DNA of 64,000 bases from Porticoccaceae bacterium (GCA_041655035.1 JBAZCN010000002.1:2577-66576), one strand, 5' to 3'. Shown: positions 13,013 to 49,139, counted from the stretch's first letter. Numbers and translations: made by a program. The notes: a model not told the origin generated them from the sequence alone.

Positions 13013-13088
13013 GCCGGCATAGCTCAGTTGGTAGAGCAGCGCATTCGTAATGCGAAGGTCGTAGGTTCGACTCCTATTGCCGGCACCA
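13013..13088 (+). tRNA. tRNA-Thr (anticodon CGU)
   Basis: Hand-folded cloverleaf: acceptor GCCGGCA/TGCCGGC, D-stem GCTC/GAGC, anticodon loop TTCGTAA, T-arm GTAGG-TTCGACT-CCTAT, encoded CCA. Confidence 0.9.
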
Positions 13089-13097
13089 CCTGACGCG

Positions 13098-13132
13098 GGA
13101 AGGGCAGCGCAAAAGGCTGCCCTTCCTGCTTT
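13098..13132 (+). terminator. Hairpin after tRNA-Thr (weak U-tract)
   Basis: GGAAGGGCAGC-GCAAAAG-GCTGCCCTTCC followed by TGCTTT. Confidence 0.5.
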
Positions 13133-13407
13133 ACCTCACATCCTCCCGGGTTCAGGCGCGACGCATTGGCGGCGCCTTCCTCGACAGCGCGATCAGCGAC
13201 ACGCAGTGTCGCCGCTGTCAGGGGCCAAGCCTTCCTGGTCGACAAACTTGCCTCTGTCCCGCAGTGTCGGCAGCAACTGCCGGGCGGTGTACGGGCAGCC
13301 GGTTGCCTCGGGGTCTGTCCGCCCGGCCGGCCGCCCTTGCGGGCTCCGTCCAGAGTCCTTCCGCCAGCCAGCGCGGAGCGGCCGGCGCGTTCAATGGATA
13401 CGCTCCC

Positions 13408-16400
13408 TCACAAGCCCTCCATAAAGTCCATGGCCCCCTGGTGGCGGATCACCCGGCGGTGGTTGGCCCAGAGTTCGGCCACCTGGTCGCGGTTGAGCTG
13501 CTGGCGATCCACCAGCACCCTGGTGTTGAGCTCGCCGAGTGGCATCGGGCTCGGCACCTTGCTGAATACGAACTGGTTGCTGACCAAGTCGAGGAACGGG
13601 CCGGCCTTGCTGGTGGGCATGATAAAGACCAGTTGCAGGCCGATGGTCTGGGTGAGGTAGCCGATGATTTCCCGCGAACGGGTTTCGTCCATGTGCATGA
13701 AGGCTTCGTCGACGATCACCATGCGCAGGTGGCTGTTGCCCTCATTGAATCGAAAGGCACTGGTGATGGCGGCGGCGCGGATTATGTAGGCCGGTGTTTC
13801 GAGCTGGCCACCGGAGCCGGTGCCGTACTCGCTGAGGCGGATCGGTGCCTTGCCCTCGGGGTGCTTGAGAATGTCGTAGCGGCGATAGTGGCGGTAGTCG
13901 CTGATCCGCTCCAACTCGCGCAGGGCCAGCTGTTCGTCGCCATCGAGCAGCAGCGCCAGCATCCGGTCGCGAACGGCGGCGGCTTTGGCGCCGAGACTGT
14001 CGTCGAACAGGCTGGTGCCGTCGCCGAGATTGGGAATGCGGATGATCTCCCGGAAGAAATCCCAGTACTCCTTGAATTCGGGCACCCAGGCCCATTCGAA
14101 CTCGAAACGCTCGCGATCGGCGCCGAAGTGATGGTGCTGGAGTTCGCTGTTCAGGTTGTCCAGAATCCGCTTGCCATCGTTGATGGCCTGGTGGATTTCG
14201 TGGCACAGGTCGCTGACGAACGTGGTGTTGAAGGTATCGCGCAGGGCGGCGAGCCGTTCCTGCTTCTCCAGCAGCACGTTGTTGCGCAGCCGGTTGTGCA
14301 GGCCGTCGAGCTGCTGGCGCAGGTTGCGGACATGGCCAAAGAAAGCGAGGCTGTGCAATTCCGCAGGACTATCGGCCACCAGGCTGTCGGCCACCAGGGC
14401 CTGCCGGTTGTACTCCAGAATGGCGCGTTCGAGAGCGATGGCCTCGCGGGTCAGCCGGCTGGTGAGCTCTTTCTCCTCGGTCTCGAAGTCGATGCTGGCG
14501 TGGGCCTGTCGCAGGCGCTCATCCATGGCGGTGGTATAGCGCTCGATGTCGAGTCCCGGCCAGTGGTCGGCGGCGTCGAGCAGGGCGGCCTCGGCCCGCT
14601 CCTGGCGTTCGCGGAGCTGGTCACTGGTGTCGGCGAAGCGCCTGATGCGCTGGTCGAGCTCCTTGAGCAGCGCGCCGAGGCGACCGTTTTCTTCGTTGAG
14701 CTGGCGCTGGTGCTCCTCGAGGGTCTGGTAGTGGCCGCGCAGCCGTTGTTGCTCCTGTTCCAGGTCCTGGTGGGCGCTGAGATCGAGGCGCTCGAGTTGT
14801 TCCTCGACCTCGCGCAGGCGGCGCTGGATATCGAGCAGGCCGGCGACGGCAGCGGCCTGGGCGAGGGGTTTCAGACGCTCCACTTGTTCCGCCAGTTGCC
14901 TGGCTGCCTGATAGTCGCGGTTGGCCGACTCGTAGTGTCCACGCAGTTCCCGCTGTGCCAGGCGCTGCGCCTGGAGGTTGCGTTCGCGCGCGGTTTCGCC
15001 GAACACCAGTTGGCTGTCGTCGATGTCGCAGCGAAACAGTGCGTAGTTGCCGGAGCCCATGCCGTCGGCGGTGATGCCGCGCCGGGTGCGGCGCAGGGCC
15101 TCGGCGTCGGCGACGCGCACCACGTTGCCATAGGAGGCGCGCAGATAATGTTCGGCGGTGCGGTGGCTGAAACGCAGCGCGTGGATGATGGAGTCCGCCG
15201 GCAGGGTCTGCTTTTCGGTATCGCGCCGCGCCTGGTCGCCCTGGATCACCCGCGCGCGGTTGCGTTCGCGTCCGCCCAGGCGGCGGACCACGCGGATCGC
15301 TTCCGCCTCGAACGCCGGTTCCACCAGGATCGCGAAACGGCCGCCGCCGATATAGCCCTCGATGGCCATCTGCCACTCGGGGTCCATCACTTCCACATGG
15401 TCGCACAGCACCCGCGGGTCGGCGCCGGGGCACTGCTGGCGGATGGCTGCCAGCGCGGCCTGGACATCCGCGGGGTAGGTGATTTTGTGGGCTTCCAGGG
15501 CGGCGATCTGCTGTTCGCTCTGGTTCAGCCGGCGCTGCAGGTCGGCGAGGGCTTTCTCGCTGTCGCTGACCAGCAGTTGAAGGCGCCGGGCCGGGCTGGG
15601 GGCCTGATCGTCCCCGGCGGGGGACGCGTGGAGCTGCTCCACCAGGCGGTTGTGTATTTGCTGGTCGGCGCGGAGGCGGTCGAGGGCGCTGTCCAGGGGG
15701 CTGAGGTCGATCCAGTCCCGGGCCAGCAGTTGATTGAGATCGGGCAGCCGCTGGTCGCCGCCGTCGAGAAGCGCAGCGCTGTCGGCCCGCCAGCTGCGGC
15801 CGGCCAGTTCCGGCAGCGCCTTGTCGAGATCGTGGCGCGCCAGGGCATCGCGGATATTGCGCAGCGCGGTGAGGTTGCTTTCGCGCTGGTGATCCTGTTC
15901 CAGCAGCGGAGGAACGCCCTGGTGGAGCTGTTCGTTGAGGCCGTCGCGCTGGCGCTCCAGGTCGTCCTTGGTGTGCAGGGCGGCGATGCCCTGGCGCCGG
16001 GCCTCGAGGGCGATCAGGTCGCGGTGGGCCTGGTCGAGGCGCTCGCGGCCGAGGCGCTTGTCTTCATCGAGGCTGGCCAGCTCGCCGTTGAGGCGCAGTT
16101 GTTCCTCCTTGGCGGCGAGGTAGTCCCGCTGGTTGTGGCGGTATTGCCCGGCGGCGGCGCCGTAGGCGAGCGCGGTGCGTTCCAGCCAGTGCTCGAGATA
16201 GCGGTCGGCGCCGTCGCGGGCCAATTCCAGCTGTACGGCGCTGGCGCGGATGCGGCTGGCTTCCTGCTCCATGCCGTGGACGGTGCGCAGCAGGTCGCGG
16301 ATGCGGCGGATGGTATCGCCGAGATCCCGGGCCTCGAGCACCTCCTCGGCGACGAACTGGTCGATCGAGCGGACCGGCTTGTAGGCCATGAAGCTGGCGA

Positions 16401-17049
16401 AGGCGCGGGCGGCATTCTTGGCTTCGCGGGTCGAGACGGCGTCGGACTTGCCGCGCAGGGCGCCGTACAGCCGCGCCAGATAGGCGCTTTTCTTGTCGTA
16501 GATCTCGACGGCTTTCTTGCCGAACTCCTGGCGCAGCAGGGTGGCCAGTTCGGTTACGGGGACCACATGCCGGCCGTCGGCATAGTGGCGGAGGAAGTGC
16601 GATAGCGACAGCCTTTCGCCCGCCACGATCATCATCAGCAGTTCGTCCTGGCGCGCCTGGGGGCTGCTGCCGGCGCGGTCGAGGTGGGCGCGCACCCCGA
16701 TCACCGCGGTGAACGGCTCGCAGCTTTCGCCCTTGGTCGGCTCGAATACCCCGGCGATGTAACCGTCGCTGTCCCAGGGGCGGGCGAAGGCGCCGTCGTC
16801 GCAGCCGAGGATATAGGACGCCAGGGTGCGCACCTGCTTGCCACCGCGGCCGCGCTGGGTGGTTTCGTCCTGGCCCGGGTTGTAGTTGAACAGGTTGTCG
16901 TGGGCGGCGGTCATCAAAGTTTGCAGGGCGTCGGCGGCGGTGGTCTTGCCGGAGCCATTGCCGCCGGAGAACAGGTTGACCGGGCCGTAATCGAATTCCT
17001 GGGGAGGCAGGTTACCCCAGTTGACGGTGATGGAACGTTTCAGGTACAT
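13408..17049 (-). CDS. SMC-like ATPase of the JetC/MksB family
   Basis: Walker A GGNGSGKTT (residues ~29-37), then RTLASYILG. Long Leu/Arg/Glu-rich coiled-coil arms. Central hinge EWQMAIEGYIGGGRFAILVEP...FRCDIDDSQLVFGETARERN. Signature GSGGQ, Walker B MVIVDEAF. The ATG overlaps the upstream stop (TGATG). Confidence 0.8.
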   Translation of the reverse strand: MYLKRSITVNWGNLPPQEFDYGPVNLFSGGNGSGKTTAADALQTLMTAAHDNLFNYNPGQDETTQRGRGGKQVRTLASYILGCDDGAFARPWDSDGYIAGVFEPTKGESCEPFTAVIGVRAHLDRAGSSPQARQDELLMMIVAGERLSLSHFLRHYADGRHVVPVTELATLLRQEFGKKAVEIYDKKSAYLARLYGALRGKSDAVSTREAKNAARAFASFMAYKPVRSIDQFVAEEVLEARDLGDTIRRIRDLLRTVHGMEQEASRIRASAVQLELARDGADRYLEHWLERTALAYGAAAGQYRHNQRDYLAAKEEQLRLNGELASLDEDKRLGRERLDQAHRDLIALEARRQGIAALHTKDDLERQRDGLNEQLHQGVPPLLEQDHQRESNLTALRNIRDALARHDLDKALPELAGRSWRADSAALLDGGDQRLPDLNQLLARDWIDLSPLDSALDRLRADQQIHNRLVEQLHASPAGDDQAPSPARRLQLLVSDSEKALADLQRRLNQSEQQIAALEAHKITYPADVQAALAAIRQQCPGADPRVLCDHVEVMDPEWQMAIEGYIGGGRFAILVEPAFEAEAIRVVRRLGGRERNRARVIQGDQARRDTEKQTLPADSIIHALRFSHRTAEHYLRASYGNVVRVADAEALRRTRRGITADGMGSGNYALFRCDIDDSQLVFGETARERNLQAQRLAQRELRGHYESANRDYQAARQLAEQVERLKPLAQAAAVAGLLDIQRRLREVEEQLERLDLSAHQDLEQEQQRLRGHYQTLEEHQRQLNEENGRLGALLKELDQRIRRFADTSDQLRERQERAEAALLDAADHWPGLDIERYTTAMDERLRQAHASIDFETEEKELTSRLTREAIALERAILEYNRQALVADSLVADSPAELHSLAFFGHVRNLRQQLDGLHNRLRNNVLLEKQERLAALRDTFNTTFVSDLCHEIHQAINDGKRILDNLNSELQHHHFGADRERFEFEWAWVPEFKEYWDFFREIIRIPNLGDGTSLFDDSLGAKAAAVRDRMLALLLDGDEQLALRELERISDYRHYRRYDILKHPEGKAPIRLSEYGTGSGGQLETPAYIIRAAAITSAFRFNEGNSHLRMVIVDEAFMHMDETRSREIIGYLTQTIGLQLVFIMPTSKAGPFLDLVSNQFVFSKVPSPMPLGELNTRVLVDRQQLNRDQVAELWANHRRVIRHQGAMDFMEGL

Positions 17050-17747
17050 CAGTCGCGGCTCTCTTCATCATCATCGCTGTCGTCGCGGCAATCGCCATCG
17101 TCCACCAGCGGCTCGCCGCCGGCGAGTTGTGCCAGCACGGTATCGGTCACCAGGCTGGTGATGCCGGGGCGGATGGTCAGCCAGGCCTCGCCTTCGTCGA
17201 GGTCGTCGTCGCTGGCACTGCGAATCAGGCGCAGCTGGCGCAGGCGGCGGAACAGCGCGCGGCGTTCAGTGAGCGCCTCGGGGAGAGGGCGGCCGAGCAG
17301 GTTCTTGCTGGCCAGATTGAGGGCTTCCAGCGGCAGCTGGACCTGGCCGTCCTCATCGATCCGCCCTTCGCGCAGGGCCTTGTCGTACTCGGCGCGCAGT
17401 ATCAGGATCGCCGCCACTTCCTGCTGGTTGAGGCGCTCCCTGAGGCCGCTGTTGAAGCCGTCGTCGCTGTCGATGAGGCCGGGGACGTCGGCGCCCGGCG
17501 GGAACAGGCGCAGGGTATTGAAGCGCGGCTCGTGGAGCAGGCGGATCCGCAGCACGGCCAGATAGTCTTCCACCAGCTCGGGGACCCGCAGGTAGCGGTC
17601 GTAGAGTTCGGCCTCCACCTTGCTTTCGTCGCGGCACAGCACGCCGTGGTCGAGAAGCCTGATCATCAGTTCGGAAAACGCCGCCGGGTCGAGGCCGCGG
17701 GCCGCCAGGCTCGTTTCGAGGGCGTCGCGGATTGTGGTCTCGGGCAT
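17049..17747 (-). CDS. JetB/MksE-like (DUF4194-type KITE) subunit
   Basis: [14 protein letters not shown]...LYDRYL...[16 protein letters not shown] pattern and an acidic tail. Start ATG 17747 is preferred because third-position GC is high only downstream of it. The track ORF extends to 17840 and another ATG lies at 17807. Confidence 0.65.
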
Positions 17748-17802
17748 TCTTTTCTCAGAAAGAGTCGTCTTGGGAAGAATCGTCTCGGGAAGTGTCGTCT
17801 CA
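17728..17802 (-). repeat. Five head-to-tail 15-nt repeats at the A/B gene junction (three good copies, two degenerate)
   Basis: Minus strand reads GAGACGACACTTCCC / GAGACGATTCTTCCC / AAGACGACTCTTTCT / GAGAAAAGAATGCCC / GAGACCACAATCCGC. The first copy starts inside the TGA of the upstream gene. Confidence 0.75.
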
Positions 17803-19236
17803 AACATTCTCGTCGTGTTCCAGTTCAAGCAGGTAGCCATCGCGGCGGGCGAAGTAGTGCTCGCCGGTGACGGGCTCGGTGGCTTCTAGGTGCAGCCGGA
17901 AGCCCGTCGCGGCATGATCGGCGCCGCCCAGTTCGATGATATGACTGAGGGCGAGCAGGTCTTTGGCGTCGTTGATCGGCAGGTCGCGGTTGTCGATGCG
18001 GCGGCCGGCGCCAAGGGCGCGGCGCAGGTAGTCGCGCAGTGCGCCGCCATTGATGTTGAACGCCTGCTCCAGCAATTGCTGGACGGCAAGGTCGCGGCGG
18101 GTGGCGCCGTCGGGCTCGCCCGGCTCCATCATCTGGCTGTTTACCGGGGGGCGCTGGCGGCGCTCGCGGAGGCGAATCTGGCCGGGGTCGACCAACGCGA
18201 GGCGGGTGCCGGCCATGATTGCGCCGGCCGCCGCGAGGCGGCGGCTGAACTCTTCGTCATCCTGCCCGGCCAGGGTACGGCACAGGCCGACGATATCGCT
18301 GTGCTTCTGGCTGTGGAGATAGCTCAACTGGCGGATGATGATATCGGCGCGGCGGGTGAATCCCTGGAGCGTTCGCCGCAGGGCGGGCAGCATGATCTCG
18401 GAGGCGTTGCGCAGGCGTGTTTCGATGCTGTCCAGCAACTGCCAGAGTACCGAGGCGTGCTCGTCGACGACCAGGTCCGGCGCCTGGCGGCGCAGTTCCC
18501 GCTCGGCGGTCTGCTTCCAGGCCCTGGGTTTGCGGCGGATGCGATCTATCACTTCCCGGATCCTGTCGCGATGCTTTTCGACGCTGTCGGCAGAGAGGCG
18601 GATCGCCACATCGGGCTGGAATCGGCGCTCCATGAACTCGAAAAACTGATCGCTTGCCTGCTGGACCAGTTGCTGGGCTTCCACGGCCCTCACCAGTTCC
18701 CGCTTGCGTTCTTCGAGTTCGGCGATGATGTCGGTGAAATCCGCGATGATGCGCTCGGAGTGCTCGTGGGCATCGATCAGGTCGTAGGCCTCGCCGCGCT
18801 CGAGGAAGGCGGCCAGGGAGTTCAACGTATTGCGGGTGTTGCGGTGGCGAGTGCGGATACTGCGGCCATCGGCCTCCACCAGGGTTTGGGTGAACAGCCG
18901 CCCGGTGCGGCTGAACGGATAGGTGGACTGGAAGGTCGCCTGGTCGACCTGGCGCTCCAGCCAGCCGTGCTCGACCAGGTTGTTGAGAATCCACCCGGCC
19001 TGCTCGCGGGTGTGGCGGAATCGCCCGCCGTCCTCATCCTCGCCTTCGAGCAGGGGCGCCCGCTCGAGCGCCTCGGCGAAGATCTCCAGTACCTGCTCGC
19101 GCTTGAGGGATTCGCCATAGTCGGCGCTGGCGCTGTAGAGGCGCTCGTGCAGCAGCCGCAGGCATTCCACCACCTGCTCGCGGTACTTGCCGGTGAGAGG
19201 CTTGAAGAGCTGGGCGCGCTCGTCTGTAAAGAACAT
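17800..19236 (-). CDS. JetA/MksF-like kleisin-type subunit (tentative)
   Basis: 478-aa helical protein in first position of a three-gene SMC operon. The length matches the 479-499 aa I recall as typical for DUF3375. Putative winged-helix-like ends ([16 protein letters not shown]; [13 protein letters not shown]). Family assigned by context, not by a recognised motif. Confidence 0.5.
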
Positions 19237-44027: not shown

Positions 44028-46577
44028 CTAATGGCCGTTATCCTCGCCAAAGCGGTAGCGCAGTTGCAGGCCATAGGTTCTGGGTTCGTTGTAGGTGCCC
44101 GTCTGTATTCCCAGCGCCGTGATCAAGCTGTTTGAGCCCACCAGCCATTCGTCGTTCAGCGCGTTACGCACGAAGACACTCAAGTCGAGAGGTTTGCCCA
44201 GCACGTTCGCCCAGTCGATGCGCAGGTTGACGTTGTCGTAGCCTGGCTGATAGCCGAACTTGTCGGGGAAGCTGGCCAGGGCGGTGTCATCCAGCCAGAT
44301 GCCGCTTTGACGGTAATACTCGGCATAAAACGACAGTTGGCCAAGGGCCGGATCAAGCGGCGCCAGGTAGCGAAGACCCACGGTGCCCTGGTGTTCAGCG
44401 ACCCCCACATAGGGCGACTTGCTGTTGGCGTAAACTGTGCCGTCGATGGCGGTGGTCGTCCCTGGCCAGCGGGTATTCCTGGCATCCGTCCAGGCATAGT
44501 TGAGCATAACCTGGATATTGCCGTTGAACAGCAACTGGTTTTCCAGTTCGAGGCCGGAAATCTCCGCCTTGGCAATATTGTTGGTCTGGGTCACCACATT
44601 GAAGGGTGGGTTGGGGTTTGGCAAGGTTTCCGAACGCTGGATGTCCTGGTACCAGCTGCGGTAGACCGCCAAGTTAGAGCGCACCATGGTCTGACCCAGT
44701 TGCCAGTCGGCCTTCACGCCAAGTTCGATATCGTCGAGGGTCTCGGGGGCATAGGTCAGCTTGAGTCCCGGGACATCGTTTTCGAACCCGACGGCGCTGG
44801 CGTTGATGCCGCCAGGCTTGAATCCACGCCGGTGGGCGATGTAGATCAGGGTGTCTGGGTTGATTTGGTAGTCCAGGCTCAGTGTCCAGCTGTTGGCGGA
44901 CTCGTCCATTTTCAGTGTGTTTGCCGTCGTGCCGAGAGTGGAGCCTTCAGCACCGTGAATGATGGGCACGGACGTTTGGGTCAGCTCGCTCTTGGTGCGG
45001 CGGTATCCGGCGGTGAGGCTCAGGCCCTCTGCGGCGATAGTGGAAAGATCCAGGGTGATCTGGCCGAAAATGCCCGACTGTTCGTTGCGCGTTTTGCTGT
45101 CCACGGGATTCAGAAATGTCAGGTTGTCCAAGGGAACGGAAAAGGCGTTGTTGAAATTCGGGAAAATGGGCACGCGATCATAGGGTGCCTTCACCCGCTC
45201 AGTGAAGTATCCCAGTATCCAGCTATGGCCACCCTCCATGTCGCCGATAATCTGAAATTCTTCCACCAGGTCGTCGCTGAAAGAGGTGCGGCCAAATTCG
45301 CGGGGACGATAGGGTCGCGATGGGGTCCCCGCCAAGTCATAGCCGGCGGCATAGGTGATGCCATGAGGGTAGCGTGTCGCGCCAAATTCCCTGACGATGT
45401 TGGACACCCGGTTGCGGTTGACGGCAAAAATATTCTTGATGCTGACATCGCCGAACAGAGAGTAATGGCCGATATCCACTGTGGTGATGTTGAAAATCTG
45501 CTGGTTTCGACCTCGGGAATGATTCATCTCGGCAGTGAGGTTGCGGCGCACGGAGCCGCCTCCGGCGACCCGGTCCCGCTCGTCACGCAAGTCCTGCACC
45601 AGGCTGTCGATACGGCCGATACGCTCATCAATACAGGCCTGGCGTGCCATGCCGGCGGGAGCGATGGCGCCGCACAGGCCGGCTGCCGCCTCCCAGCCGG
45701 CCCCTGTGCCGGGGCTGGTATTGAACATTCCCAGGTCGTCGTTGATGGCCATCAGCACGGCGCCGGTCGGGGTTTCGTCTACATTGTTCTGTTGCAGAAG
45801 GGTGTAGCTTTCGAGCCAGTCCGTCGGCGTGAAATTGATACCGAGGCGATAGGATTCCCGCTCTCGGCTGTCCAGCCACTGCCCGGTACTCCGGCTTTGG
45901 GTGAAGCCGTCGCGGCGCTGGATGTTGACGGCCGCCCGGGCGCTCAATACGCCTTCAACCAGCGGTAGATTGGCGACGCCAGTGGTTTCCTGCAAATCGT
46001 AGTTGCCCAGCTTGATGTCCAGGTATCCTCCCGGCTCGTCGCGGGGTTTCTGGGGGGCATACAGGACAGCGCCTCCCGTGCTGCTCCGGCCGAACAGGGT
46101 TCCCTGTGGCCCCTTCAATACCTGCACCGAGGCGAGATCAAAAAACTGCACGGTCGAACCGGCGGCACCGGTGGGCTTCAGCGGCACTTCGTTGAAGTAG
46201 ACCACGACCCCAGCGGGGGTGCCGTAGGAGGCGCCTTGTCCGCGAATGAAATAGTCCGGCTGACCCCGATTCGCCTGGCCCTGGCGAACCACCAGGCCGG
46301 GGACGTGGAACGTCAGGTCGTAAGGGTTTTCGACGTTTTTTTCGCGGATGGCTTCGGAACCCAGGGCGGTAACAGCCACGGGTACCGATTGAATATCTTC
46401 CTCGCGTTTACGGGCGGTCACCACGACCTCTTCCAGGATCATCTGGGAAGTTTCATTGGCCTGGGCGTGTATCGGGGTGGTGACGGATGACACCAGGATC
46501 GTGAAACCGGCGGCCACTGCGGGTGGCAGATGTTTTATCGAAACTTGTATACGTGAGTGCTTTCGGATTGTTTTCAT
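44028..46577 (-). CDS. TonB-dependent receptor
   Basis: ATG 46577 with signal peptide. Plug motifs EEVVVTARKREEDIQSVPVAVTAL and VQVLKGPQGTLFGRSSTGGAVLY. C-terminal barrel ends near LQLRYRF. Confidence 0.85.
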   Translation of the reverse strand: MKTIRKHSRIQVSIKHLPPAVAAGFTILVSSVTTPIHAQANETSQMILEEVVVTARKREEDIQSVPVAVTALGSEAIREKNVENPYDLTFHVPGLVVRQGQANRGQPDYFIRGQGASYGTPAGVVVYFNEVPLKPTGAAGSTVQFFDLASVQVLKGPQGTLFGRSSTGGAVLYAPQKPRDEPGGYLDIKLGNYDLQETTGVANLPLVEGVLSARAAVNIQRRDGFTQSRSTGQWLDSRERESYRLGINFTPTDWLESYTLLQQNNVDETPTGAVLMAINDDLGMFNTSPGTGAGWEAAAGLCGAIAPAGMARQACIDERIGRIDSLVQDLRDERDRVAGGGSVRRNLTAEMNHSRGRNQQIFNITTVDIGHYSLFGDVSIKNIFAVNRNRVSNIVREFGATRYPHGITYAAGYDLAGTPSRPYRPREFGRTSFSDDLVEEFQIIGDMEGGHSWILGYFTERVKAPYDRVPIFPNFNNAFSVPLDNLTFLNPVDSKTRNEQSGIFGQITLDLSTIAAEGLSLTAGYRRTKSELTQTSVPIIHGAEGSTLGTTANTLKMDESANSWTLSLDYQINPDTLIYIAHRRGFKPGGINASAVGFENDVPGLKLTYAPETLDDIELGVKADWQLGQTMVRSNLAVYRSWYQDIQRSETLPNPNPPFNVVTQTNNIAKAEISGLELENQLLFNGNIQVMLNYAWTDARNTRWPGTTTAIDGTVYANSKSPYVGVAEHQGTVGLRYLAPLDPALGQLSFYAEYYRQSGIWLDDTALASFPDKFGYQPGYDNVNLRIDWANVLGKPLDLSVFVRNALNDEWLVGSNSLITALGIQTGTYNEPRTYGLQLRYRFGEDNGH

Positions 46578-46687
46578 GATTATTCCTGCTGCTTCGACGT
46601 GTCGGCCTGTGTCCAATGCCGGACACGGCTATGGGGGCGCGCCGTGGCCGGCGCGCCAAGGTTTATTCCAGTGGGTGGGTGAGGCTG

Positions 46688-48238
46688 CTAGATTGCCAAC
46701 TGAGGGTGGTGGTCCATCCACGGCTGGATCATGGAAAACGCCTGGGCTGCCCGCATGACCTTCACATCGGCAAAACGCGGGCCGATGATCTGCAGGCCGA
46801 CAGGCATGCCATCCACAAAGCCGCAGGGAACGGACGCTGCCGGCAGACCCAGGATATTGGCGAGATAGGTGTAGCAGGTGCTGATATGGTTCGCGTAGTA
46901 AGGGTCGGTGTAGGGCTGATCCCATTCTCCCGCCGGCACCTCGGGGGCGATGATGCCGAGGGTCGGTGTGCAGATCAGATCATGCTCGGCAAAAATACCC
47001 TCTATCCAGCGAAGCACGTCCGCTCGATCCTCAAGCATGCGGATTTCGTCTTCCTTGCCGATGGCGGGGCTGTTCCTTGCGGTTTCGAGCAGTTTCCTGA
47101 GCGGCGGAGTCAGTTGTTCCTGTTCCTCCGGGCTGTAAGCCATAAGGACCTCGCCAACCCGGTTTGAGGATTGATTCACCGTCATGAAGACGCGCCATGC
47201 TTTTTCATCCGGGAGGAGTATGTTGGGAGCATCCACGATGGCGCCGGCTTCCGTAAACCGGGCCGCTGCTTTCTCTACCTTGTCGACTACCCGGGCGTCG
47301 AGAATGGGGATCAGGCCAAAGTCGCGGGTCCAGGCGATGCGATAACCGGCCACACCGTTGTCCAGATCGCCGAGAAAGTCCGGGGCCGGCCTCTCGATGG
47401 AGCTGGGGTCCAGAGGGTGGAATCCAGCCATGACCTGGAGAATCGTGGCGGCATCCCTGACATGTACCGCCACTGGCCCTGTGGAGGTGGTGTTGACGCT
47501 GCGGGGAATTCTCAAAGGGATCAGCCCGGCGCTTGGCTGCATGCCAAAAACCCCGTTATAGCAGGACGGTATGCGTGTCGAACCGCCGCCATCGCTGCCC
47601 ACGCCCATTGCCGAGATCCCGGCGGCGACGGCCGCGCCCGCGCCGCCACTGGAGGCGCCCGAAATACGTTTGATATTCCAGGGGTTGAATGTTTCTCCGG
47701 CCACCGTGTTCTTGGTGCGGGGAAACTTGCCGAATTCAGGGGTATTGGTTTTACCGAGAATGATGGCCCCCGCCTCGCGCAGCCTTTCCACCGATACCTC
47801 ATCGCGGGAGGGAATAAAGTTCCGGTAGATTTCGGAGCCATGTGTACTGCGCAAGCCCTTCGTTTCGGTCAGATCCTTGATGGAGATTGGCAGGCCATGG
47901 AGCGGCCCCAGTGGTTTTCCCTTCATGACGCGGTCTTCCGCGATTCTCGCCTGAGCCATGGCTCCTTCCGGGTCAACGGTGATATAGGAATTGATGATCG
48001 GATCAATCCGTGCGATGCGATCGAGGAAGTAGCGGGTGAGCTCTACCGGTGACAGGGCCTTGCTGGCAATCATGTCACGGAGCTCCCAGCCCGGCGTCCA
48101 GGCGAGATCGGCTGATCTGCTGGTTTTGATCGGGGCCGCCATGGCCCCGGCAGTGTTGGCTGCCAGAAGAGCCGCTGATCCCGCTTTCAGCAGGGTCCTG
48201 CGGGTGATGCCGCCATGTTTATCATCATTATTGTTCAT
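46688..48238 (-). CDS. Amidase-signature family amidase with Tat signal
   Basis: Twin-arginine TRRTLLKAG. AS motif SGASSGGAGAAVAAGISAMGVGSDGGGSTRIPS. Confidence 0.8.
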   Translation of the reverse strand: MNNNDDKHGGITRRTLLKAGSAALLAANTAGAMAAPIKTSRSADLAWTPGWELRDMIASKALSPVELTRYFLDRIARIDPIINSYITVDPEGAMAQARIAEDRVMKGKPLGPLHGLPISIKDLTETKGLRSTHGSEIYRNFIPSRDEVSVERLREAGAIILGKTNTPEFGKFPRTKNTVAGETFNPWNIKRISGASSGGAGAAVAAGISAMGVGSDGGGSTRIPSCYNGVFGMQPSAGLIPLRIPRSVNTTSTGPVAVHVRDAATILQVMAGFHPLDPSSIERPAPDFLGDLDNGVAGYRIAWTRDFGLIPILDARVVDKVEKAAARFTEAGAIVDAPNILLPDEKAWRVFMTVNQSSNRVGEVLMAYSPEEQEQLTPPLRKLLETARNSPAIGKEDEIRMLEDRADVLRWIEGIFAEHDLICTPTLGIIAPEVPAGEWDQPYTDPYYANHISTCYTYLANILGLPAASVPCGFVDGMPVGLQIIGPRFADVKVMRAAQAFSMIQPWMDHHPQLAI

Positions 48239-48521
48239 CGTGGTTCCTCATACTGAATGGAGATTGGGGTGACGGTTGGTTTTTATCGCCTGATATGCAC
48301 TGGTCATCCTGGCTGGCACCCCATGCTGTAGCGGTGTGGCTATAATATGACCAGATACCGAACCGTTTCGTGTCTTACTTGCTCCGGGCAGTGGTGTCAA
48401 CGGAGCAGTGCGGCCTCCACAAGCGTGGCCTTGACGTCTCGTGAGTGAGATGCTTCGGATGCAATAAAGTGAGGAGCTGGTTACAGTACACGGATTGTTT
48501 ATGCCGATCGCAGGGTATCCC

Positions 48522-49139
48522 ATGAATAGGAAAACCAAATCGCCCAAGGAGCTATCGCAGGAAAGACTCGGTGTTTTGTTGGCTGTGGCGGCCAATGAAT
48601 TCCTGGACAAGGGATACAGCGGTTGCTCGATCGATCACATTTCGCGGGAGTCCGGTGTTAGCAAAAGCACCATTTATCGCCACTTTTCGGGTAAGGAGGA
48701 ACTGTTCGAGGCGGTCCATGAGCAGATCGCCGATGAGCATTCGGCCCTGATCGGCGCCTTTGCCATGGATACCGAGAAGCCGGCTGAGACCCTGAAAAAA
48801 CTTGCCCGCCATATTCGCAGCAGCTGTGTCATACCCCGTTATCTGGAATTCTTCCGGCTTCTGATCGCCGAGTCGGGACGGTTGCCCGAGATGACGGAGC
48901 GACTCAGATCCCGGGGCTTTTCCACAGCGCTTGGCGATATCACCACCTATTTTGAAGAACTCATTGCCGAGGGGCGAATGGAACATCCGGATCCACGCCA
49001 GGCAGCGTTGATGTTCTACGCTCTGGCAAGGGGCAATTTTCGTCCGTTTCTTGAGAAGGACAAGGATCTCGATCAGGAGCTCCGGCGAATCGATATGGAT
49101 GTGGATGTATTCCTCAGGGGATGCCATATTCAGCCCTGA
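48522..49139 (+). CDS. TetR-family transcriptional regulator
   Basis: HTH GCSIDHISRESGVSKSTIYRHF. Start uncertain (48495 or 48522). Confidence 0.8.
   Translation: MNRKTKSPKELSQERLGVLLAVAANEFLDKGYSGCSIDHISRESGVSKSTIYRHFSGKEELFEAVHEQIADEHSALIGAFAMDTEKPAETLKKLARHIRSSCVIPRYLEFFRLLIAESGRLPEMTERLRSRGFSTALGDITTYFEELIAEGRMEHPDPRQAALMFYALARGNFRPFLEKDKDLDQELRRIDMDVDVFLRGCHIQP

Follow-up and report, generated by a model that had tools for sequence, protein, structure and literature searches.

In Wadjet systems, JetABC senses small circular DNA as an ATP-dependent complex that extrudes loops, and the cutting is done by JetD, a Toprim nuclease (PMC10586767; bioRxiv 10.1101/2022.10.04.510915). The work that defined the Mks family already described operons both with and without a fourth gene (Petrushenko 2011, cited in bioRxiv 10.1101/2022.10.04.510915), and MksBEF and MukBEF have been proposed to result from nuclease loss (PMC10586767; bioRxiv 10.1101/2025.03.10.642339). 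MksBEF itself is reported to belong to the core of all Pseudomonas and to be without similarity in sequence to MksBEFG (bioRxiv 10.1101/2020.05.18.101659). Both the existence of Mks operons lacking the fourth gene and the proposed derivation of MksBEF from a JetABCD system that lost its JetD are thus already in the literature (bioRxiv 10.1101/2022.10.04.510915; PMC10586767; bioRxiv 10.1101/2025.03.10.642339). Here we describe a jetABC operon in a 64,000-nucleotide stretch of DNA from a Porticoccaceae bacterium (GCA_041655035.1 JBAZCN010000002.1:2577-66576; hereafter the window, meaning the whole stretch) in which jetD survives only as a deletion scar. What this adds is modest: a fixed scar, and a subfamily in which the nuclease has been lost many times over while ABC was kept.

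The spacer between jetC and a convergent tRNA-Thr gene (13089-13407) had been described in a first-pass annotation of the sequence as 318 nucleotides (nt) free of open reading frames (ORFs). It is 319 nt long and has no long ORF, yet it holds a jetD pseudogene remnant. In this 202-nt scar, about 15 N-terminal codons are followed, after a shift of frame, by about 52 C-terminal ones, the junction lying near 13351/13350. Its N-terminal piece begins with a TTG at 13394, 13 nt past the jetC stop, and continues as LNAPAAPRWLAEGLW, corresponding to the conserved JetD N-terminus (...P.WLAEE.WL...). The C-terminal piece, in another frame, reads GRSPQGRPAGRTDPEATGCPYTARQLLPTLRDRGKFVDQEGL..., ends in a stop codon at 13195-13193 and corresponds to the JetD C-terminus (GH.P.QAGK..QTDP..TGCPYAD..LLPALR..G.F.DQE). 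When JetD proteins from nine relatives were used as tblastn queries, all matched 13351-13223 on the minus strand through their last ∼40–50 residues (E 2e-3 to 2e-7), and a hidden Markov model (HMM) built from 34 JetD proteins matched 13390-13196 at E = 1.1e-9, covering HMM positions 322-364 of 365. Missing from the scar are about 310 codons (∼0.9 kb), the Toprim core included: the Toprim-containing Pfam domain JetD_C maps to residues 225-319 of the intact JetD of the closest relative (locus L001) and the remnant resumes only at HMM position 322, so that the Toprim region is gone. The nuclease gene has therefore been lost through a frameshifting deletion of about 0.9 kb. The match to the scar was the only significant one when the 34-protein HMM was run against all six frames of the window, which revealed no second JetD, and the first-pass claim that no nuclease is encoded in cis holds.

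The deletion is not peculiar to one assembly. A JetC copy on record that differs by 4 residues from that of the window led us to three separate assemblies of the species: the window itself, whose JetC is identical to a protein from a Porticoccaceae metagenome-assembled genome (MAG) at NCBI (MFA5493217.1); ENA ERZ27247346 (L081); and GCA_964556815.1 (L083). Compared with the window, L081 differs at 22 positions and L083 at 10, the neighbouring genes are the same ones, and the 319-nt spacer is the same to the base in all three. The first-pass annotation had allowed that an adjacent jetD might turn up in a better assembly; all three assemblies carry the same scar. We conclude that the jetD deletion is real and fixed in the species.

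In every other respect the locus has the composition of a type I Wadjet. JetA falls in PF18982 (DUF5716) at 7.1e-28 and matches the PADLOC model JetA1 (PDLC00445) over its full length at 3.8e-233; JetB is a DUF4194 protein (PF13835, 9.9e-30; JetB1, 7.2e-90); and JetC is a structural maintenance of chromosomes (SMC)-like ATPase with long coiled coils, matching PF13555 (AAA_29), PF13558 (SbcC_Walker_B) and, at 1834 bits, PADLOC JetC1 (PDLC00515). The Pfam SMC_hinge match in JetC is weak and below threshold (E = 0.009); its Walker A, signature and Walker B motifs are invariant in the family alignment. These full-length type I models bear out the first-pass assignment of the operon to the SMC-KITE-kleisin Wadjet/Mks family, with protein B as a DUF4194 KITE subunit and protein A as a JetA/MksF kleisin, and all of the motifs quoted for the three proteins are present in the translations. 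The same annotation had recognized no DUF3375 motif in protein A, rightly so, because type I JetA belongs to PF18982 and not to PF11855. The type II/III families PF09660 (DUF2397), PF11855 (DUF3375) and PF09661 (DUF2398) gave no Pfam match at E ≤ 0.01, and the models TIGR02677-02680 likewise gave no indication of type II/III (TIGR02680 reached 31.5 bits, its cutoff being 462.85). PADLOC JetC2 matched JetC weakly and partially, none of the MukF, MukE and MukB Pfam families was matched by the JetABC proteins, and NCBIfam contained no usable family for JetA, JetB or JetC.

In sequence, the subfamily to which the window belongs (PADLOC PDLC00515/00445/00482) is only distantly related to the Wadjet systems whose structures have been studied. 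Searches of the PDB by phmmer with full-length JetA, JetB and JetC found no matches, and a 21-sequence JetC profile found only a spurious one; a JetC head construct freed of its coiled coils matched P. aeruginosa PA14 JetC (8DK1_C) at E = 6e-4, with the MukB head second at 0.096. An IFDR-like JetD-docking motif has been described at the JetB N-terminus of PA14 (PMC10586767); none is evident in this subfamily. The one departure from type I lies immediately after jetC, where a JetD (aCAP + Toprim) gene should follow and a scar retaining ∼67 of ∼375 codons is found, a departure due to the secondary deletion only. Judged by sequence, then, the locus is an ordinary type I Wadjet that has lost jetD to a secondary internal deletion.

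The relatives of the locus show that this loss is far from unique. We compared 80 related loci, one genome per species, each taken with 10 kb to either side and with a JetC 44–75% identical to that of the window. JetD was adjacent in 34; another 38 had none adjacent despite at least 1.2 kb of downstream sequence (hereafter, JetD-less); 3 had JetD-related fragments, and 5 ended at a contig edge. Where present, JetD is a ∼375-amino-acid (aa) ORF with Pfam JetD_C, in many relatives only a few bases past jetC. The closest relative (L001), with a JetC 75% identical, has an intact JetD 3 nt past its jetC stop (PADLOC JetD1, 4.6e-128). Fragments directly following jetC comprised ∼29 N-terminal codons in L033 and ∼148 in L035, and in L064 a 30%-identical JetD-like stretch lies on the opposite strand. 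The L033 and L035 remnants are independent, with deletion end points unlike those of the window. JetD-less loci are dispersed over a neighbour-joining tree of JetC, among them a Halopseudomonas clade of 16 members and a Bermanella clade of 9, and parsimony with irreversible loss requires at least 15 losses of JetD. Also JetD-less are Microbulbifer loci and those of Halioxenophilus aromaticivorans (NZ_AP031496.1), Hahella sp. (NZ_CP192738.1) and Pseudomonas saudimassiliensis (NZ_LK391969.1). Pairwise JetC and JetD distances are closely correlated (r = 0.97), and thus the cassette has been inherited as a unit and change runs toward loss. Because the closest relative carries JetD, 34 of the 80 loci have it adjacent and JetC and JetD have diverged in step, the ancestral state, as read from these comparisons, is the four-gene one.

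No common replacement for the nuclease was found 3′ of jetC in JetD-less relatives, and the candidates had no PADLOC match. Those considered and set aside were a PAAR-Tle1 gene, a periplasmic binding protein, a methyltransferase, an FGE-sulfatase, spurious-frame ORFs and an ORF in Bermanella, with nothing in common among them. The first of these concerns seven Halopseudomonas loci (L012, L014, L016, L019, L020, L023 and L024), where an ORF of ∼630–675 aa occupies the jetD position ∼20–160 nt past jetC; in L012 and L014, the two scanned, it encodes a PAAR-motif/Tle1-like phospholipase of the type VI secretion system effector type, and it is probably a mere neighbouring island, striking as its placement is. 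In Bermanella, a conserved ORF of 403–409 aa lies ∼1 kb past jetC (L053:14638-15849, L055:14478-15698 and L057:14584-15813; 64–78% identical) and had no Pfam, PADLOC or JetD-HMM match.

In the JetD-less relatives, the remaining genes show constraint comparable to that seen where JetD is kept. Among JetD-less pairs, dN/dS for jetA, jetB and jetC was 0.02–0.33, as compared to 0.05–0.29 among pairs with JetD, and the JetD-less pairs with low dN/dS include pairs at dS above 1. Downstream synteny is common to the Bermanella loci and to the Halopseudomonas loci examined, with a similar ORF pattern in Microbulbifer loci; because it is common within clades, much of the JetD-less divergence probably postdates one loss per clade. 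On these alignments, JetABC is under purifying selection in JetD-less clades. In the window, residues deviating at columns at least 90% conserved number 5 of 155 in JetA, 1 of 75 in JetB and 9 of 405 in JetC; most of the changes are conservative, and the three proteins rank as ordinary family members do (JetA is 30th of 76). Of 13 such columns in the scar (hmmalign on its C-terminal part only), 2 deviate, as compared to 15 of 635 for JetABC (Fisher p = 0.04). Among the three scar-bearing assemblies, jetC has 9 synonymous and 4 nonsynonymous single-nucleotide polymorphisms (SNPs), giving a pN/pS of 0.14 (p = 7.5e-4 against neutrality). Taken together, this evidence, limited but overall in favour, suggests that constraint on JetABC continues in the window species.

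The SNPs themselves are unevenly placed. Within jetC (13408-17049) lie 13 of the 22 SNPs found in 23.6 kb (enrichment p = 3e-6), and eight of them cluster at 14368-14473, which encodes part of the coiled-coil arm (codons 859-894); either a tract of recombination or fast local evolution could account for the cluster.

What would such a three-subunit complex do? JetA2B4C4 would be expected still to assemble as an ATP-driven SMC-kleisin-KITE dimer of motors, to load on DNA and to extrude loops; without the Toprim subunit, captured circular DNA would stay uncut and the locus would no longer restrict plasmids. Because jetD is a scar, cleavage-based plasmid restriction should be lost at this locus, barring a nuclease acting in trans. 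The retained JetABC would then most probably take a nuclease-independent, MksBEF-like role in DNA folding or handling. In view of the at least 15 JetD losses in the subfamily and the purifying selection on JetABC afterwards, we consider it somewhat probable, and the best-supported reading, that the nuclease-free JetABC continues to bind DNA and extrude it and has been retained for a role like that of MksBEF. More tentatively, and with less than even confidence, we suggest that nuclease-free JetABC is a recurrently selected functional state rather than debris, and that the locus is an early snapshot of Wadjet domestication.

Several observations weigh against a retained, nuclease-free function. 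The deletion is not an ancient one, given that the scar is still 50–59% identical to intact JetD C-termini (median 50%, with a median of 59% among intact ones). Turnover is fast among defence systems, and in high-GC genomes long ORFs stay open for a while by chance. Other partial remnants are seen in L033 and L035; no sigma-70-like promoter was found upstream of jetA; and 8 of the 13 jetC SNPs fall within 106 nt, a cluster that may be a single recombination tract and without which the ratio is 2 nonsynonymous to 3 synonymous and the signal of selection weakens to p = 0.09. In addition, the 64-kb view leaves room for a jetD copy elsewhere in the genome, and the JetD-less relatives were seen at ±10 kb only, so that a nuclease in trans could explain their purifying selection.

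The age of the scar, the fast turnover of defence systems, the remnants elsewhere and the weakened SNP signal all suit the strongest competing explanation, namely that this is a dead defence system: jetD was deleted, perhaps selected for tolerance of useful plasmids, and jetABC is functionless and intact only because little time has passed. We regard this as unlikely, but as a serious contender. It sits poorly with the low dN/dS of intact JetABC in old JetD-less clades, pairs with dS above 1 included, where the persistence of JetABC indicates that nuclease loss does not generally bring decay of ABC. In the window, moreover, JetABC lacks the excess of changes at conserved sites that the scar to some degree displays, and the reading frames stay open through all 1,923 codons in each of the three assemblies.

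It is less likely again, and in our estimation rather improbable, that the system is split, with JetABC restricting plasmids via JetD or another nuclease encoded elsewhere, e.g., in a second Wadjet locus. Purifying selection on JetABC would fit this equally well, and 64 kb of the genome were seen; within them, however, there is no JetD, the tight JetC-JetD correlation argues for a subfamily-specific partnership, and JetD-less loci have no conserved substitute effector past jetC. A weaker point in the same direction is that, among the best 120 JetD homologues, only some of which carry species names, the named species were JetD-adjacent or outside the 80 loci and none was JetD-less.

Two further readings had been put forward in the first-pass annotation alongside that of a Wadjet derivative with a lost nuclease, which is the one that the scar, together with the intact jetD genes of the closest relatives, upholds. 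According to one, the operon is a housekeeping condensin of the canonical, nuclease-free MksBEF clade that is core in Pseudomonas. The three-gene kleisin-KITE-SMC order without a fourth gene, the core-like neighbours (polA, engB, cytochrome c and dsbA) and a GC content similar to the surroundings would all agree with this, but the scar makes the three-gene state secondary, type I JetA1/B1/C1 are the best-matching models, JetD is present in the closest relatives, and Pseudomonas MksBEF is without sequence similarity to MksBEFG according to Lioy et al. (bioRxiv 10.1101/2020.05.18.101659). Nor do the relatives form a nuclease-free clade with one synteny, as an ancestral state of this kind would entail: 34 of the 80 have JetD, and the window shares no flanking gene with any of them. 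We thus consider it very improbable. The other, that of a variant Wadjet with its output through cyclic di-GMP signalling by the co-oriented HDOD-REC-GGDEF gene, whose end lies 68 nt upstream of jetA, is more doubtful still: the GGDEF protein has a single match in the 80 related loci, at 22% identity, and is not conserved beside the cassette in any of them, a weak terminator-like hairpin separates the gene from jetA, and from the scar it is clear that JetD was the original output. Finally, although all of the sequences are metagenome-assembled, that the missing jetD is an assembly artefact or a minority variant is scarcely credible, because three separately assembled contigs with SNPs elsewhere carry the identical scar, which excludes an artefact.

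The positions of the operon and the adjoining features are collected in Table 1. The three minus-strand ORFs are tightly coupled and lie at the coordinates given for them in the first-pass annotation, and direct reading agrees with it on both junctions. The jetB stop overlaps the jetC start in a TGATG at 17051-17047; jetA terminates in a TGA at 17802-17800 and is separated from jetB by 52 nt, counted to the ATG at 17747. This ATG (M32 of the maximal ORF) is the true jetB start, since gene calls on L081 and L083 use it and high-scoring segment pairs with relatives run across a stop codon upstream of it. Just before the jetB start, the spacer (17748-17799) contains two imperfect direct copies of a ∼15-nt motif (GAGACGATTCTTCCC / AAGACGACTCTTTCT).

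Table 1. Features of the jetABC operon and its 3′ boundary in the window.
Feature	Position	Strand	Details
jetA, kleisin	17800..19236	-	478 aa; PF18982 at residues 43-450; PADLOC JetA1 over full length
jetB, KITE subunit	17049..17747	-	232 aa; start at M32 of maximal ORF 17049-17840
jetC, SMC-type ATPase	13408..17049	-	1213 aa; PADLOC JetC1 at residues 1-1212
jetC motifs			Walker A 29-37; hinge region ~548-690; GSGGQ 1078-1082; Walker B MVIVDEAF 1110-1117
jetD remnant (deletion scar)	13193..13394	-	tblastn, frame translations, 34-protein HMM
11-bp stem-loop	13098..13126	.	read directly from sequence
tRNA-Thr(CGT)	13013..13088	+	ARAGORN; Rfam RF00005, 70.5 bits

Between the scar and the 3′ end of the tRNA gene lies the stem-loop, a perfect 11-bp stem (GGAAGGGCAGC-cttttgc-GCTGCCCTTCC). 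It may serve as a shared terminator for the operon and the tRNA; a scan for terminators based on T-runs made no call on it. The tRNA-Thr gene, convergent with the operon, marks the boundary of the cassette. None of the genes flanking the cassette in the window (on one side dsbA, a cytochrome c gene, engB, polA, a kinase gene of the APH family and genes for a znu transporter; on the other the genes for HDOD-REC-GGDEF, phosphoketolase, acetate kinase and an acyltransferase) was found in any of the 80 related loci, and thus the surroundings of the cassette vary from genome to genome. In two Alcanivorax MAG loci, a tRNA-Thr(CGT) gene lies upstream of jetA on the same strand (L030:7707-7782 and L072:7706-7781), and in L073 a tRNA-Arg(CCG) gene is just upstream of jetA. 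Together with that of the window, these tRNA neighbours hint at tRNA-associated insertion of the cassette; a search for island boundaries in the window detected neither a second copy of the tRNA-Thr 3′ end nor any att-like or meaningful direct repeats. Elsewhere in the window, a region at 44028-49139 has lower GC and lower GC at third codon positions (∼0.59–0.60), with a 516-aa ORF bearing an amidase-like GGSSGG-type motif and, by eye, an ORF resembling a TonB-dependent receptor and another resembling a TetR regulator; the region appears ordinary.

The idea that MksBEF and MukBEF arose from Wadjet was proposed without natural intermediates, and the window locus and its relatives, a marine gammaproteobacterial Wadjet-I subfamily, supply them: a scar fixed in one species, partial remnants, JetD-less clades with selected JetABC, and close relatives that keep JetD. 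If nuclease-free JetABC is indeed a recurrently selected state, the locus would represent an early step toward an MksBEF/MukBEF-like organizer of chromosome or plasmid DNA, and natural pairs of JetABCD and JetABC-only systems, 65–85% identical, could show what loss of the nuclease changes. For annotation, three-gene “Wadjet-like” matches need to be checked for a jetD scar before they are labelled as defence system or condensin.

Among described systems, the locus is closest to type I Wadjet JetABCD (also MksFEBG or EptABCD; P. aeruginosa PA14, E. coli GF4-3), with which it shares the core subunit families, the gene order and translational coupling; its relatives carry JetD1 right after jetC, and PA14 JetC is the nearest solved structure for its head domains. 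It differs in that jetD is a 202-nt scar and the defining nuclease is absent, and in the distance in sequence of its subfamily from the systems studied structurally. Like P. aeruginosa MksBEF (PA4686-PA4684), it is a nuclease-free kleisin-KITE-SMC operon on a gammaproteobacterial chromosome, and MksBEF, the proposed end point of JetD loss (PMC10586767), would be its likely functional analogue; MksBEF nevertheless probably belongs to another sequence clade, judged by the PADLOC type I models and by Lioy et al., whereas the nuclease-free state of the window is recent and secondary, with relatives that carry JetD and synteny that is not conserved. With MukBEF it shares the dimer-of-SMC-dimers class of architecture with kleisin and KITE subunits, and the MukB head was the second match of its JetC head construct, but the absence of Pfam MukF, MukE or MukB matches places it in another lineage. 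Natural or spontaneous inactivation of Wadjet likewise has precedents in what is described of the EptC mutation of M. smegmatis mc2155 and of deletions in Clostridium cellulovorans (PMC10586767; PMC12287153); as described there, those laboratory-strain cases strike the SMC subunit or delete chromosomal segments, whereas the window has lost the nuclease gene only and kept ABC.

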